Shown here: piece after piece, positions 22,407 through 26,640 of the stretch
Position numbering within the stretch: position 1 is the stretch's first letter
How the letters are laid out: every line of letters starts with the position of its first letter
Source of the DNA: an uncultured Pseudomonadota bacterium
GTDB lineage: Bacteria; Babelota; Babeliae; Babelales; GCA-2401785
Assembly (NCBI GenBank): GCA_964442725.1
Contig: CAYTZU010000001.1
Location: forward strand, 1-26,640
Direction: 5' to 3'
Length of the DNA stretch: 26,640 nt
Made by a program: the position numbers and the translations under genes
The notes under the pieces: generated by a model
The model's input: only the letters and a program-made list of their open reading frames with translations
Databases searched by the model: none
Told to the model about the DNA's origin: nothing

Positions 22407-22616
22407 TTATTTTTTGCAAGTGCAATCTTTTAAGCTTTTTCCGCAGGTTTTGCATTTCGCGCAGTTTGGACACTTTCCATTGACAAGTTGGGTTCCGCAA
22501 GCAACGCATTTTGGTGCTTTAGGAGTTGTTTGTGTTGCACAATTAAGCATGTCTGTTGAAACTGGAATTGCTAGCATTAAAATTGAGGCCAAAAATAGGT
22601 ATTTTTTGAATGGCAT
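22407..22616 (-). CDS. Small secreted cysteine-rich peptide (69 aa, double zinc-ribbon-like)
   Basis: GGAGG RBS before ATG 22616; signal peptide MPFKKYLFLASILMLAIPVS; CVAC, CPNC, CKTC, CTC; terminators on both sides. Confidence 0.75.
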   Translation of the reverse strand: MPFKKYLFLASILMLAIPVSTDMLNCATQTTPKAPKCVACGTQLVNGKCPNCAKCKTCGKSLKDCTCKK

Positions 22617-22650
22617 AGTAAAAATCCTCCAGAAAATCATTAATTTTAAA

Positions 22651-22695
22651 TAAAAAAGGGAAGCGGACAAAATTTTAGTCCACTTCCCTTTTTTA
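22651..22695 (-). terminator. Rho-independent terminator of the 22725-23147 gene
   Basis: TAAAAAAGGGAAGCGGAC / GTCCACTTCCCTTTTTTA; the single mismatch is a G-U pair on the minus-strand RNA and a U tract follows. Confidence 0.8.
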
Positions 22696-22724
22696 TTTCT
22701 ATTCTTTAGATTTTAGTTATTGAT

Positions 22725-23147
22725 TTATCCCTCTGCTTCAGTCGGCTCTTCATCTGATGGAGTTATAGTATTTTGTTTTTTGGGTTTTATTAAATTATCA
22801 AGGGCTTTGTCTGCACCGTTAAGACTGCCATTAACATTTGTTAACTTGCCTTGTGGAGCTTTTTCGCCAATTTCTCTTAGCCGAGCACAGAATTCTTTGA
22901 CTGTGGGTTTTTTACTTACAGTGGTTTGGAATTTTGCTCCTTTTTCTAAACATTTTGATTCATTAAGGTTGTTAATCCTTGCATTCATGAATCTTTCAAG
23001 TTTTGCTTCTGAAACATTAGAGACTTCCGATCCAAGTCTTTTACAAATTTTTTCTATGTGATCTTGTACCATTTCTCTTGTTACAACAGCATGAGCTGAG
23101 CCTATTAATCCGAGGGCTAAAACTAAGCCCAAACTTTTCTTCAACAT
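22725..23147 (-). CDS. Secreted hypothetical protein (140 aa)
   Basis: GGAGG RBS before ATG 23147; signal peptide MLKKSLGLVLALGLIGSAHA|VV with an AxA cleavage site. Confidence 0.8.
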   Translation of the reverse strand: MLKKSLGLVLALGLIGSAHAVVTREMVQDHIEKICKRLGSEVSNVSEAKLERFMNARINNLNESKCLEKGAKFQTTVSKKPTVKEFCARLREIGEKAPQGKLTNVNGSLNGADKALDNLIKPKKQNTITPSDEEPTEAEG

Positions 23148-23362
23148 GAATGGTCCTCCAATCTTTGAGATAAAAATGTTAAGAACAACCAAAATCCAAT
23201 TATTTTATATCTAAAATATACTGACAATTATTTTCTTATTGCAATATTTTAATTTATTGGCGCCACGGCTATAGAGTAGATGATCAAAAATACACCCTAA
23301 AACAAGGCAAAATTAACATTTTCTAAGTTTTGAAAGCTGAATTAAGCTATAAAAACCCATTT

Positions 23363-24715
23363 TTACAGTTTGAATATTAGCGGGGGTTCTCCTATTTTAG
23401 CTGAATCGAGAAAATAAATTGGGTCAAAAATTCGTTTTTTATCGATTTCTATGTTTTTTAAAGGCTCCTTAAAGCACGAATGCGCGACTAAAATAACAAC
23501 TAAATCAGCTTGGGAAAGCCTTTCTGAGACTTCCGCTTGATCAAAGGTCTTCAATCCCAAAGTTTCTATTGCTGCTCTTTCAATCATTGGGTCAAAAACC
23601 ACCAAGTTGATTTCTGGACAAGTGTTCAACTTTAAAGCGATTTCAAGAGCCGGTGACTGATCAATGTCAGAAACATCAGATTTATACGTTAATCCAAAAA
23701 TTAAGATTTTAAATTTCTCTGGGCTCGAGGATTTTTTGCTATCAACTATTTTCAAAATTTGATCGACAATTTTTTGTTTTTTAGCTTTGTTGATTTCAAT
23801 TGAAGCATTTAGTAGCTCGAAATCTCCGTTTAATCCATTTTTCAGGAGTTCTGGATCGATGGCCATTGAGTGCCCACCGGCTCCAATTCCAGGATTTAAG
23901 ATATTTACTCGCGGATGTTTGTTTGCAAGCTCGATGACCTCTTTTGGATTTAGCCCGAATTCAAGGGCCATTTCATTGACTTGGTTGGCAAAGGCGATTT
24001 CAACACTTCTGGAGATATTTTCTATGAGCTTGGCAAACTCTGCACTTTTTGGGTCTGTAAAACTCAAATTTCCACTATTGAATAATTCATAAAATTCTTT
24101 GGCCAAAATGAATGTTTGTGGGCATGATGCCCCAATTATTCGGTCGTTTTGAGCGATTTCATGCTCACTGCGTCCTGGAATAAATCTTTCAGGACTGTAT
24201 ACGACGAAAAAATCCTCATTTGCTTTTAGCCCTGATAAAGAGGCGATTTGTCTTTCAAGTTTTTCCGTTGTTCCGACTGGGACGGTTGATTGCAAAATTA
24301 CTAAAGCTCCAGGCTTTAAATTTTTTGAAATTTCTTCAGCGCAGTCAAAAATATCTGAAAGGTCCGCCGCTTTGCCATTCAATAGCGCTGGAACGCATAT
24401 GATGAAAGTATCAGGGAATATTTCGAGTTTTTCGGCGATTTTTAATTTCTCATTCAAAAGGCTTTCTTTAAGCTCTTTGTGGAATGTTTTTTCGCAAAAC
24501 TTAATCTTTAGATCATTTATTTTATTGATTCTATCTTTGTTTGTGTCAATTCCGATCACTGAAAGGCCCGCTTTTGCCATAATAATTGAAGTTGGCAAGC
24601 CCAATTTGCCAAGACCAAAAATTGCAACGGTTTTATGAGAATTTTCGTTATTAATTGACATCAGACTTACTTGACTAAATACCAAAGCAAGAAGCGCTAA
24701 GATCATTGTTTTCAC
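23363..24715 (-). CDS. WecC (UDP-ManNAc dehydrogenase)-like paralog with signal peptide and catalytic Cys replaced by Ser
   Basis: Nucleotide-sugar dehydrogenase motifs GLGxxGLP, STVPVGT, PER, KLIEN, but GGHSMAIDP in place of GGHC. Likely GTG start at 24715 with GGAGG RBS; alternative ATG 24748 overlaps the upstream stop as ATGA. Confidence 0.85.
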   Translation of the reverse strand: MKTMILALLALVFSQVSLMSINNENSHKTVAIFGLGKLGLPTSIIMAKAGLSVIGIDTNKDRINKINDLKIKFCEKTFHKELKESLLNEKLKIAEKLEIFPDTFIICVPALLNGKAADLSDIFDCAEEISKNLKPGALVILQSTVPVGTTEKLERQIASLSGLKANEDFFVVYSPERFIPGRSEHEIAQNDRIIGASCPQTFILAKEFYELFNSGNLSFTDPKSAEFAKLIENISRSVEIAFANQVNEMALEFGLNPKEVIELANKHPRVNILNPGIGAGGHSMAIDPELLKNGLNGDFELLNASIEINKAKKQKIVDQILKIVDSKKSSSPEKFKILIFGLTYKSDVSDIDQSPALEIALKLNTCPEINLVVFDPMIERAAIETLGLKTFDQAEVSERLSQADLVVILVAHSCFKEPLKNIEIDKKRIFDPIYFLDSAKIGEPPLIFKL

Positions 24716-24744
24716 AGTACTTTCCTCCACGTGTAGAATTTTTG

Positions 24745-26640
24745 TCATTGAGTTGCAAAATCTTTTTTTGATACGAGAATCTGTTGCAATTTTCCTTCTC
24801 TTTTAATTGTTTCCATCAAACAAACAGAGTCCAAAATTTTTAAGCGATCAATTTGCATTGTGCTAAAAAGTTCTTTAAAAGATGTATGAGCAACCAATAT
24901 TGCGATCAAATCGATATTTTTTATCTCTTCGATGATCTCTTTTTGATCCAAAGATTTTATGCCCAAGGCTTCTATTATGCTTTTTTCAACATGTGGATCA
25001 AAAACTGAGACCTCAATATTTGGGAAATTGTTTAATTTCAACGCTATTTCAAGGGCCGGCGATTCTCTAAGGTCAGGCACATTGGGTTTGTATGTCAATC
25101 CAAAGATTAAAACCCTGAATTTGTCAGTATTTGTTAGGTTTTTATATTCAGCCTTTTTTAAAATTTGCTTGATGATTTTCTCAGGTCTAGCTCTGTTAGC
25201 CTCAATTGCACTGCTTAAAACCGCGTATTCACCGCTCAATCCAGCCTCTAAAAATAATGGGTCGACCGCTACGCAGTGTCCGCCAACGCCTGGTCCGGGA
25301 TTTAAAATATTGACTCGTGGGTGCCGATTTGCGATTTCTTTAATTTGTGTTGCGTTAAGCCCAAGTTCATGGGCAATGTCACAAACCTCATTGGCAAGGG
25401 CGACTTGAACATTCCTAAAGCTATTTTCGACAAGTTTGATCAGCTCTGCGCTTTTGAAGTCGACAAAGCTCAAGTTCCCAGTACAAAATGATTTATAAAG
25501 TTTGTTTGCAAAAAGAAAGGCTTGTGGGCACTCTGCTCCGATGACTCTGTCATTTTCGATAATTTCCTGTTCCATGCGGCCTGGAAGAACTCGTTCTGGA
25601 CAATAAGCAACGAAAAAGTCTTTGTTTGCCTGCAGTCCTGACAATGAGCTGATTTTTGCCTCTAGTTGCTCGGTTGTGCCGACTGGGACGGTTGATTCCA
25701 AGATTATTAGAGCGCCGGGTTTTAAATTTTTGGAAATTGACTCTGCGCATTGAAAAACATATGAAAGATCAGCTTTCCCATTTAAAAGCGGTGTGGGAAC
25801 GCAAATGATGAAGAAATCAACAGGTTTGTCCAGTGTTTGCAAGAGTGTTAATGTGTTTTTTTGGATCTGATTTTTTAACTCGTCACAAAGCGCTCCTTCT
25901 AAAAACTCGATTTCTCCAGCCTTTATTTTATTAAGTCGAGCTAAATTGGTATCAATTCCGGTCACGCAAAACCCGGTTCTTGCCAAAACAGTGGCGGTTG
26001 GAAGTCCGACATATCCAAGTCCAAAAACTGCCACAGAAATCGGTTTCTTTTCACAAAATTTTATATTTTTATCAAGTGTGGCTGGCTTGATAGATAGAGC
26101 GTCTTCGGCCTCTTTTGGGAAGTGCTGTTCAATTATCTCGACAATTTTCTTGCTCGCGTCTCCCTGTCCATAAGTATTGAATAAATCATTTGATTGAGCA
26201 GTTTTTTCGCATTTGATTGAATAACAATTTTCAAGTGCTTGATTGATGAGCTCCTGGTCAAAGCCTGTCAAAATAACATTGTCCAACTGAAGATTTTCAG
26301 GCCGCTCAATATTATTTCGCACACAAATTGTTGGTTTTCCGAGTGTTGAGGCCTCTTCAAAGACTCCGCCAGAATCAGTTATTACAAAATCTGTTTCTTT
26401 TAGGGCATAAATAAACTCTGGATACCCCAACGGAGGCATAAATGCGATGTTTTTTGAGAGATTATTTTTTAGAAAATTGCAAAAATCATCAAGTGCTGGA
26501 TTTGGATGTCGTGGATAAATGATTGCCAGGCTATCCGGTCCATGTTTTTCGATGAATTTTGAAAAACTTGCAGCAAGATTTAAAAGTTCAGACCCAAGTG
26601 ATTCGCGCCTGTGCACAGTCATTATTGCAAGTTTTTTATA
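24745..26640 (-). CDS. wecC: In-frame fusion of UDP-GlcNAc 2-epimerase (WecB, 5'-truncated by the window) and UDP-ManNAc dehydrogenase (WecC)
   Basis: WecB motifs TVHRRES, HPNP, PPLGYPEF, TDSGGVFEEA, RNNIERPE, YGQGDAS. A linker of about 26 aa with no stop leads to WecC motifs FGLGYVGLPTA, YCPERVLPG, KLVENSFR, GVGGHCVAVDP, YKPNVPDLRESPA. The frame is open to base 26640. Confidence 0.9.
   Translation of the reverse strand, partial: YKKLAIMTVHRRESLGSELLNLAASFSKFIEKHGPDSLAIIYPRHPNPALDDFCNFLKNNLSKNIAFMPPLGYPEFIYALKETDFVITDSGGVFEEASTLGKPTICVRNNIERPENLQLDNVILTGFDQELINQALENCYSIKCEKTAQSNDLFNTYGQGDASKKIVEIIEQHFPKEAEDALSIKPATLDKNIKFCEKKPISVAVFGLGYVGLPTATVLARTGFCVTGIDTNLARLNKIKAGEIEFLEGALCDELKNQIQKNTLTLLQTLDKPVDFFIICVPTPLLNGKADLSYVFQCAESISKNLKPGALIILESTVPVGTTEQLEAKISSLSGLQANKDFFVAYCPERVLPGRMEQEIIENDRVIGAECPQAFLFANKLYKSFCTGNLSFVDFKSAELIKLVENSFRNVQVALANEVCDIAHELGLNATQIKEIANRHPRVNILNPGPGVGGHCVAVDPLFLEAGLSGEYAVLSSAIEANRARPEKIIKQILKKAEYKNLTNTDKFRVLIFGLTYKPNVPDLRESPALEIALKLNNFPNIEVSVFDPHVEKSIIEALGIKSLDQKEIIEEIKNIDLIAILVAHTSFKELFSTMQIDRLKILDSVCLMETIKREGKLQQILVSKKDFATQ

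Follow-up and report, generated by a model that had tools for sequence, protein, structure and literature searches.

Near the end of a 26,640-nucleotide stretch of DNA from an uncultured member of the Babeliales (contig CAYTZU010000001.1 of assembly GCA_964442725.1; hereafter the window), the minus strand carries a gene, at 23363..24715, that we refer to as the dead WecC paralog. We show that it is a duplicate of the WecC half in the adjoining WecB-WecC fusion gene (24745..26640, minus strand), and we find that it has lost the catalytic nucleophile of its family and that it has been held by purifying selection since the duplication rather than decaying. Its translation from GTG 24715 into a signal-like leader is well supported by sequence signals, and we lean toward the view that the product is a Sec-exported, non-catalytic, ligand-binding protein derived from WecC. 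The nucleoside diphosphate (NDP)-sugar dehydrogenases, to which WecC belongs, are treated as strictly cytoplasmic enzymes that depend on nicotinamide adenine dinucleotide (NAD) and possess an invariant catalytic cysteine, and no description of natural dead or signal-bearing members was found in the searchable open-access literature. In the present case selection maintains a dead copy with a leader next to the active gene from which it came.

Duplication and retention of a WecC copy

By homology and fold the dead paralog is an NDP-sugar dehydrogenase descended from the UDP-N-acetylmannosamine (UDP-ManNAc) dehydrogenase subgroup. It contains all three Pfam UDPG_MGDP_dh domains (PF03721, PF00984 and PF03720, at 124.8, 66.2 and 52.7 bits) and scores 324.5 bits with TIGR03026, for which the cut-off is 189.8. 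The AlphaFold2 model, built from 61 sequences, has a mean predicted local distance difference test score (pLDDT) of 92.7 and a predicted template-modeling score (pTM) of 0.86, and its top Foldseek matches (E 1e-37) are the P. horikoshii UDP-ManNAc dehydrogenase 4R16 (template-modeling (TM) score 0.88) and S. aureus Cap5O, 3OJL (TM score 0.84). The protein thus has the same three-domain fold as WecC / Cap5O (3OJL/3OJO) and 4R16, at 32-35% identity. With the NCBIfam WecC equivalog NF008286 it reaches 275 bits, less than the cut-off of 459, and the intact fusion neighbor also falls below that cut-off (333 bits).

The parent gene, whose 5’ end is cut by the end of the contig, encodes the C-terminal half of a UDP-GlcNAc 2-epimerase and, with no stop in between, a complete nucleotide-sugar dehydrogenase, and all its catalytic residues are intact. 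Over 413 amino acids the dead paralog shares 54% identity with the WecC half of this protein (BLASTP, E 2e-159), in agreement with a preliminary description of the window, which had called it a tandem copy of the neighboring WecC domain. Read from GTG 24715, the best-supported start, the frame is intact for 450 amino acids, as that description had also stated, and ends with a stop at 23363-23365. The source genome assembly comprises 0.96 Mb at 38.5% GC and is 83% complete, and the names given to proteins of its relatives assign it to the Babeliales (Dependentiae). Two separate studies, with runs from wastewater (2025) and from activated sludge (2020), yielded contigs in which the gene is the same letter for letter, and therefore the serine codon and the leader described below are not assembly errors; among the contigs of the four runs of these two studies there are zero polymorphisms over the gene.

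An ortholog was found neither among 5.8 billion proteins (best non-self match 45% identity), nor among 1.84 billion cluster representatives (best match the WecB-WecC fusion P0122, 50%), nor in 40 relatives (best 45%), and nothing closer is present in 201 Babeliales genomes; the orthologs with leader and GGHS motif that the preliminary description had hoped for are therefore missing from the databases searched. The ratio of nonsynonymous (dN) to synonymous (dS) divergence was consequently taken from the paralog pair, together with relative-rate tests, in place of orthologs. Between the paralogs dN is 0.33, dS is 1.86, which is near saturation, and dN/dS is 0.18, probably an overestimate. A Tajima relative-rate test with a consensus outgroup gives 40 changes unique to the dead paralog and 39 unique to the active one, Tajima-type counts against the consensus and six single outgroups are equal (p 0.14-0.91), and the branch lengths from the duplication node are 0.62 (dead) and 0.56 (active). 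Under neutrality, at 0.3-0.9 substitutions per site and with 4.8% of single-base changes creating stops, 19-60 nonsense changes would be expected in 450 codons, and the frame is open. The overall rate of the dead paralog is as slow as that of its active sister, with the replacements concentrated at catalytic and NAD-contact positions. The earlier proposal of a retained, neofunctionalised duplicate rather than one in decay is accordingly supported.

DNA identity between the two copies is still visible, as had been noted, and an exact match of 19 nucleotides with the paralogous part of the fusion gene (24273..24291, within the stretch of about codons 130-159) is real; it is not the sign of a young copy, as dS is saturated. 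Third-position identity between the paralogs is 0.70 in this 30-codon stretch (window positions 24273-24360) against about 0.47 elsewhere, and gene conversion between the tandem copies may have taken place over this short tract.

In the tree the dead paralog groups with the fusion neighbor and P0122 (Shimodaira-Hasegawa-like approximate likelihood ratio test (SH-aLRT) 99). The duplication appears older than the split from P0122, an order to which the alternative is not rejected (approximately unbiased test, p-AU 0.48), and no dead copy was found at the P0122 locus. The sister clade to the window's WecC clade consists of the metagenomic proteins P0127, P0133, P0137 and P0142, which read GGDC...H where the family reads GGHC...D, such that the nucleophile-adjacent His and the general-base Asp appear swapped. 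At Tyr10 they carry Asn or Gln, their CPER motif contains a Ser, and the Cys is kept; this subfamily may have an altered catalytic arrangement.

Catalytic and cofactor sites

In an alignment with 119 homologs, 94 columns are conserved in at least 95% of the sequences. The dead paralog deviates at 17 of them and the fusion neighbor at nine; seven deviations are common to both and therefore predate the duplication or belong to the lineage. The ten that are unique to the dead paralog (Y48K, T121A, P122L, E153Q, C185S, V290A, C294S, F301L, P324K and R363D) compare with two unique to the active paralog (binomial p 0.039).

The codon of Ser294 (23867..23869, minus strand) lies at the position of the catalytic nucleophile, Cys260 of S. 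pyogenes UDP-glucose dehydrogenase (SpUGDH) and Cys258 of Cap5O. This cysteine is the covalent nucleophile and is invariant in 229 curated family sequences (PMC4794789); 120/120 close homologs have it, as do the 150 cluster representatives with two exceptions, which are discussed below. The change from GGHC to GGHS that had been read from the sequence is confirmed by the codons and the alignment, and recomputation returned the same codon positions as before, with Cys450 of the fusion at 25273-25275.

Further replacements fall on residues of known function. The Rossmann GxGxxG motif (G45-L-G-K-L-G50; 24599..24616, minus strand) keeps its glycines and has Lys48 (codon 24605-24607, minus strand) at the equivalent of Tyr10, the residue that hydrolyses the thioester (PMC4794789). 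VPAL replaces the invariant VPTP (24383..24394, minus strand), such that Ala121 stands for Thr83, which hydrogen-bonds the nicotinamide ribose of NAD (PMC4794789), and Asp363 (23660..23662, minus strand) reverses the charge of the Arg327 equivalent, which pairs in a salt bridge to the NAD pyrophosphate (PMC4794789). Gln153 (24290..24292, minus strand) replaces Glu117 (Cap5O numbering), which is invariant in UDP-ManNAc dehydrogenases (PMC4794789). The changes from VPTP to VPAL, GYVG to GKLG and DLRESP to DIDQSP listed in the preliminary description are all real. Its statement that the NAD-contacting motifs have drifted stands for Tyr10 in GYVG, Thr83 in VPTP and Arg327 in LRESP, which are lost, but not for the GxGxxG glycines, which are intact.

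Measured against the 18 family-invariant residues of PMC4794789, 16 are present, the exceptions being Thr83 (Ala121) and Cys260 (Ser294), while the near-invariant Tyr10 and Arg327 are Lys48 and Asp363. Of the residues that mark the UDP-ManNAc group (Arg152, Pro155, Arg211, Val261, Val254, His257, Glu117, His242 and Phe265 in Cap5O numbering), R188, P191, R247, H293 and H278 are kept, V297I is conservative, and E153Q, V290A and F301L are changed; the Glu, Val and Phe replaced at 153, 290 and 301 are specific to UDP-ManNAc dehydrogenases (PMC4794789). The NAD-adenosine side is kept, with the GxGxxG glycines and Asp68, which contacts the adenine ribose. Also present are Ser154, Thr155, Pro186, Glu187, Arg188, Glu237, Lys240, Asn244, Arg247, Gly291, Gly292, His293, the general base Asp298, Asn320 and Lys356, as well as the KLxEN motif, whose Lys and Asn had already been recognized as retained, and the ion pair of the dimer, H278 with E243 (His242 and Glu207 of Cap5O). 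This pattern indicates damage to the catalytic machinery and to the half of the NAD site that receives the nicotinamide, with the fold, the contact between the dimer subunits and the greater part of the pocket for UDP-ManNAc or its uronic acid, UDP-ManNAcA, left in place. We infer that the chemistry of four-electron oxidation has been lost.

Two of these substitutions have been engineered in the laboratory. The Cys260Ser mutant of the S. pyogenes enzyme forms a stable, trapped ester (PMC6367545), which agrees with the adduct cited in the preliminary description, and the Tyr10Lys mutant of Burkholderia BceC, met in the Foldseek search, has a crystal structure (PDB 2Y0D). The same two changes occur naturally here as Ser294 and Lys48. 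Unlike the laboratory proteins, which are point mutants of cytoplasmic enzymes, the dead paralog has both fixed together, with further changes in the NAD site and under purifying selection.

In sum, the dead paralog resembles WecC / Cap5O in being encoded beside wecB-wecC and in keeping the equivalents of the UDP-ManNAc-specific Arg152, Pro155, Arg211, His242 and His257. It differs from these cytoplasmic enzymes in the change of the nucleophile to Ser, in the replaced equivalents of Tyr10, Thr83, Glu117, Val254, Phe265 and Arg327, and in an N-terminal hydrophobic leader. As the Cys, Thr83, Tyr10 and Arg327 equivalents are all replaced, it fails the catalytic definition of the NDP-sugar dehydrogenase family and should not be annotated as WecC. 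It has two features of a pseudoenzyme: it is the homolog of an active enzyme without the essential catalytic residues, and purifying selection maintains it.

Translation start and leader-bearing homologs

Four-base Shine-Dalgarno (SD) cores are most frequent in this genome at -15..-9 relative to the first ATG of long open reading frames (ORFs); 31% of genes have one there, about 10 times the background. The dead paralog has a GGAGG at 24724..24728 (minus strand), 8 nucleotides before GTG 24715 and hence at -13..-9, and no SD core is found at -15..-9 before ATG 24748, ATG 24706 or ATG 24661. The next two genes on the minus strand have the same arrangement (GGAGG, 7 nucleotides and ATG at 23147; GGAGG, 9 nucleotides and ATG at 22616), and both open with obvious signal peptides. 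Upstream of the GTG the frame extends by 11 codons (24716..24748, minus strand) to ATG 24748, from which it (23363..24748, minus strand) would encode 461 amino acids. In the sequence ATGA this ATG and the stop of the fusion gene overlap, and a start there by translational coupling is possible.

The 20 residues encoded from the GTG (24656..24715, minus strand) resemble a signal peptide: Met-Lys-Thr, with Lys at position 2, is followed by ten hydrophobic residues and a Ser/Gln/Val-rich end, with candidate cleavage after Val-Phe-Ser or Leu-Met-Ser. The best 10-residue Kyte-Doolittle mean is 3.22, a value reached by 0.46% of random stop-free genomic 27-mers, a null set that includes real membrane segments. 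The GC content of the leader (36.7%) is that of the gene (37%) rather than that of the neighboring spacer (25.9%), and in the AlphaFold2 model residues 9-32 form a separate helix ahead of the Rossmann strand. The N-side flank of the hydrophobic run is the more positively charged, as read from the sequence, and the body of the protein is therefore predicted to lie outside. The genome has genes for SecY, signal peptidase I and two secretins. The GGAGG-GTG start and leader said earlier to have been gained are thus supported, the former by the SD spacing preferred in this genome and the latter by its hydrophobicity (p ~0.005), and the product is probably exported by Sec or at least anchored with its N-terminus in and its C-terminus out. 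As signal sequences are predicted on 44% of the coding sequences of Chromulinavorax, a cultured member of the Babeliales (PMC6561590), the gain of a leader may be easy in this group. A derivation of the leader from the WecB-WecC linker was rejected, the DNA similarity being not above that of shuffled controls.

Screening of homolog matches for odd active sites and long N-termini revealed three further proteins, of Babeliales family f12, with hydrophobic leaders and Gly at the nucleophile position: P0134 (G172:C69; L027 / L024:3431-4783), P0141 (L025:8001-9365, a JGI metagenome contig), in which the second Rossmann glycine is also lost, and P0281 (L060:8001-9356, a Logan contig). The leader of P0281 consists of Lys-Lys, a hydrophobic run and Phe-Val-Ala-Cys, which we take, judging by eye against the lipobox pattern, to fit a lipoprotein; that of P0134 nearly fits. 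All three lack a start codon where the canonical one would stand, and translation must therefore include their leaders. Tyr10, Glu117, His257, Val261, Phe265 and Arg327 are each replaced in at least two of the three and Thr83 in one, largely the same positions as in the window gene, while Arg152, Arg211, Lys204 and Lys320 are kept (Lys320 as a conservative Arg in one). The P0281 locus, ordered wecB, wecC, dead copy and a gene for a 752-amino-acid oxidoreductase fusion, matches the tandem arrangement of the window. P0134 and P0141 have a different locus in common, where their neighbors are iPGM and an amino-acid permease; after each comes a gene for a small protein with a signal and a C-terminal transmembrane segment. 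The small ORFs downstream of these copies and the secreted protein downstream of the window gene look unrelated, as judged by eye only.

The f12 copies nest in their family beside the ordinary WecC of the same genus (SH-aLRT 100), on branches that are accelerated relative to their parents, with pairwise dN of 0.41-0.50, far below the saturated dS. A single origin of these copies and the window gene is rejected (forced tree, p-AU 5.8e-6), and therefore an extra copy, an export-type leader and the loss of largely the same residues, among them the Cys260, Tyr10, Glu117, Phe265 and Arg327 equivalents, arose at least twice. The f12 proteins differ from the window gene in this independent origin, in the change of Cys to Gly rather than Ser, in the relocation of two of the three and in their accelerated branches. 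Such convergence in a second Babeliales lineage argues for a real, selected, non-enzymatic function.

The same screen yielded two other kinds of homolog, both of which call for caution. P0090 (G014:C57, L015) and P0103 (L059:2336-3787) have intact active sites, and public gene calls give them hydrophobic N-terminal extensions of 31-40 residues; in both a conserved AAAGGAG, 5 nucleotides and GTG lie directly before the canonical Lys-Lys start, and we dropped them as a third leader case, since the calls are likely over-extended. Three WecC homologs of family f13 (G106, L142:6043-7380; G143, L143:5911-7341; G151, L144) have intact ORFs, and each is the sole WecC-like gene of its genome. They have lost Arg327 as well as the nucleophile (Cys to Ser) and their sugar-site residues are eroding; WecB was not found in these genomes, which are 92%, 92% and 59% complete, respectively. 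They look like a relic or a protein repurposed after loss of the pathway, and their pattern indicates that the Cys can be lost in place when the pathway goes, without export. Across the tree the dead or alive state requires four changes.

The neighborhoods of these genes have features of their own. In the window (22407-24728, minus strand) the dead paralog is followed consecutively by genes for a 140-amino-acid protein (start 23147) and a 69-amino-acid Cys-rich peptide (start 22616), and all three have GGAGG 7-9 nucleotides before the start and a signal-like leader. Together they make up a small run of putatively exported products. In several other Babeliales loci wecC is followed by a fusion of 720-750 amino acids that joins a zinc-type alcohol dehydrogenase (ADH) to a GFO/IDH/MocA oxidoreductase (L056:12509-14731; L060:9360-11618; L142:7377-9536); the small secreted proteins of the window occupy its position. 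The f13 genes have this ADH_zinc_N/GFO_IDH_MocA fusion directly after them, and at the P0122 locus an asparagine-synthase-like gene comes after it. This gene order suggests a conserved pathway for a modified uronic-acid sugar in Babeliales.

Proposed localization and function of the dead paralog

Based on these data we propose, with somewhat more confidence than doubt, the following course of events. The WecC half of the WecB-WecC fusion was duplicated and the copy has been kept by purifying selection. Loss of the nucleophilic Cys, of the thioester-hydrolysing Tyr and of two NAD contacts (Thr to Ala and Arg to Asp) would have left it unable to carry out the four-electron oxidation. Translation from GTG 24715 behind the GGAGG would place Met-Lys-Thr, ten hydrophobic residues and a small-residue end in front of the protein, and this leader would act as a signal peptide for Sec or, at the least, would anchor the protein N-in/C-out. 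The WecC-like body of ~430 residues would in that case fold in the periplasm, a compartment with neither NAD nor a pool of UDP-sugars, and a secretin-type system might pass it onward. Its role, on which we can only speculate, would be that of a binding protein rather than an enzyme, and since the contacts to the sugar and the diphosphate are retained, the likeliest ligand would be a sugar, glycan or nucleotide-sugar of the uronic-acid or ManNAcA type.

Several points weigh against this proposal. The cleavage site is non-canonical, with Val or Leu at -3 and Ser at -1, and the hydrophobic core of the leader has just 10 residues. ATG 24661, 29 codons downstream of the GTG, would give a leaderless protein with an N-terminus of normal length, 69% of the genes in the genome have no SD core, and the apparent leaders of P0090 and P0103 show that such extensions can arise by chance. 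With six Cys the protein is in the normal range of the family (mean 8.7) and shows no adaptation to an oxidizing compartment; as one f12 analog has 11, we rejected Cys depletion as a sign of export because it is uninformative. The window gene itself has no ortholog in the databases searched that would show a conserved leader. The f13 homologs lost the Cys without acquiring any leader, and therefore catalytic loss and export are not necessarily coupled. Finally, the ligand and the role are guesses.

The alternative that survives best, though we consider it unlikely, is that the protein stays in the cytoplasm, soluble or tethered to the membrane by an N-out/C-in anchor or an amphipathic N-terminus, and forms mixed dimers with the WecB-WecC fusion that localize or regulate UDP-ManNAcA synthesis at the membrane. 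The ATGA overlap and the lack of a promoter-like site between the genes suggest that the two are expressed together, the ion pair of the dimer and the long interdomain helix are kept, and the retained residues of the UDP-sugar pocket would fit a ligand-sensing subunit. The charge at the N-terminus depends on the start: from ATG 24748 the charge of the N-flank would be about zero and the topology ambiguous, whereas the SD-supported GTG start places positive charge on the N-side and predicts a C-out orientation. A core of 10 hydrophobic residues is, moreover, too short for a stable transmembrane helix. Among the f12 analogs two persist away from wecB-wecC, and the putative lipoprotein-type signal of P0281, assigned by eye, makes sense for export alone. 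Dominant-negative action on a host enzyme, another role put forward in the preliminary description, has no support.

It is less probable still that the leader is never translated and that the real start is ATG 24661 (Met30), in which case the upstream frame would be fortuitous and the product a soluble cytoplasmic pseudoenzyme. Such a start would leave 10 residues before the first Rossmann strand, near the homolog norm of 7, over-extended hydrophobic leader calls do occur in the family, as in P0090 and P0103, and most genes of the genome have no clear SD. However, the full GGAGG stands before GTG 24715 and no SD core before ATG 24661, and the 29 upstream codons have a coding-like GC content and a hydrophobic run found in fewer than 0.5% of random frames. 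The dead paralog also differs from P0090 and P0103 in lacking a start codon at the canonical place immediately ahead of the Rossmann strand.

That the protein is still an enzyme, with Ser294 as nucleophile or confined to a two-electron step, possibly on another nucleotide sugar, seems to us distinctly improbable. Retention of Asp298, Lys240, Asn244, Thr155, Ser154, the GxGxxG motif and Asp68 could be taken in its favor, and Ser does form a hemiacetal and an ester in the S. pyogenes mutant, but that ester is a trapped adduct. Tyr10, Thr83 and Arg327 are replaced in addition, the last by an acidic residue, the Cys is invariant in the 229 curated members and in every intact homolog sampled, and if the protein is exported no NAD is available to it. 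The idea of a pseudogene on its way out, to which the singleton status of the gene in the databases searched and the lost catalytic residues might point, is very hard to reconcile with the saturated dS at a dN of 0.33, a rate equal to that of the active paralog, a 450-codon frame still open against 19-60 expected nonsense changes, the preserved packing indicated by a confident AlphaFold2 fold and an identical sequence in samples taken years apart in two studies.

The Sec-exported binding protein that we favor would have a precedent of a kind in EnvC and NlpD of E. coli, which are exported pseudoenzymes with catalytically dead LytM domains. Like them, the dead paralog would be a dead enzyme fold outside the cytoplasm that acts by binding rather than turnover, if, as we infer, it is exported; unlike theirs, its fold is cofactor-dependent and cytoplasmic, with no known extracytoplasmic role. 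More tentatively, and at odds we would put at rather less than even, Babeliales may have turned spare WecC copies into exported non-catalytic proteins repeatedly, on two or more occasions with a leader of the signal or lipoprotein type, the uronic- or UDP-sugar pocket being kept and the proteins acting in the periplasm, at the surface or in the host.

For annotation these genes are a warning, as all the dead copies are now labelled 'nucleotide sugar dehydrogenase'. If export is confirmed, the dead paralog would offer a tractable case in which to see how bacteria that depend on a host put housekeeping folds to use at the envelope or toward the host. In that case it would also be a naturally occurring binder of UDP-ManNAc(A)-like ligands that does not turn them over. 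Should repeated conversion of WecC prove true, the products could be lectins or chaperones for the bacterium's own ManNAcA-containing glycan, or binders or scavengers of host nucleotide sugars in an organism reliant on metabolites of its host, and they would represent a new class of function built on the UDP-sugar dehydrogenase fold.

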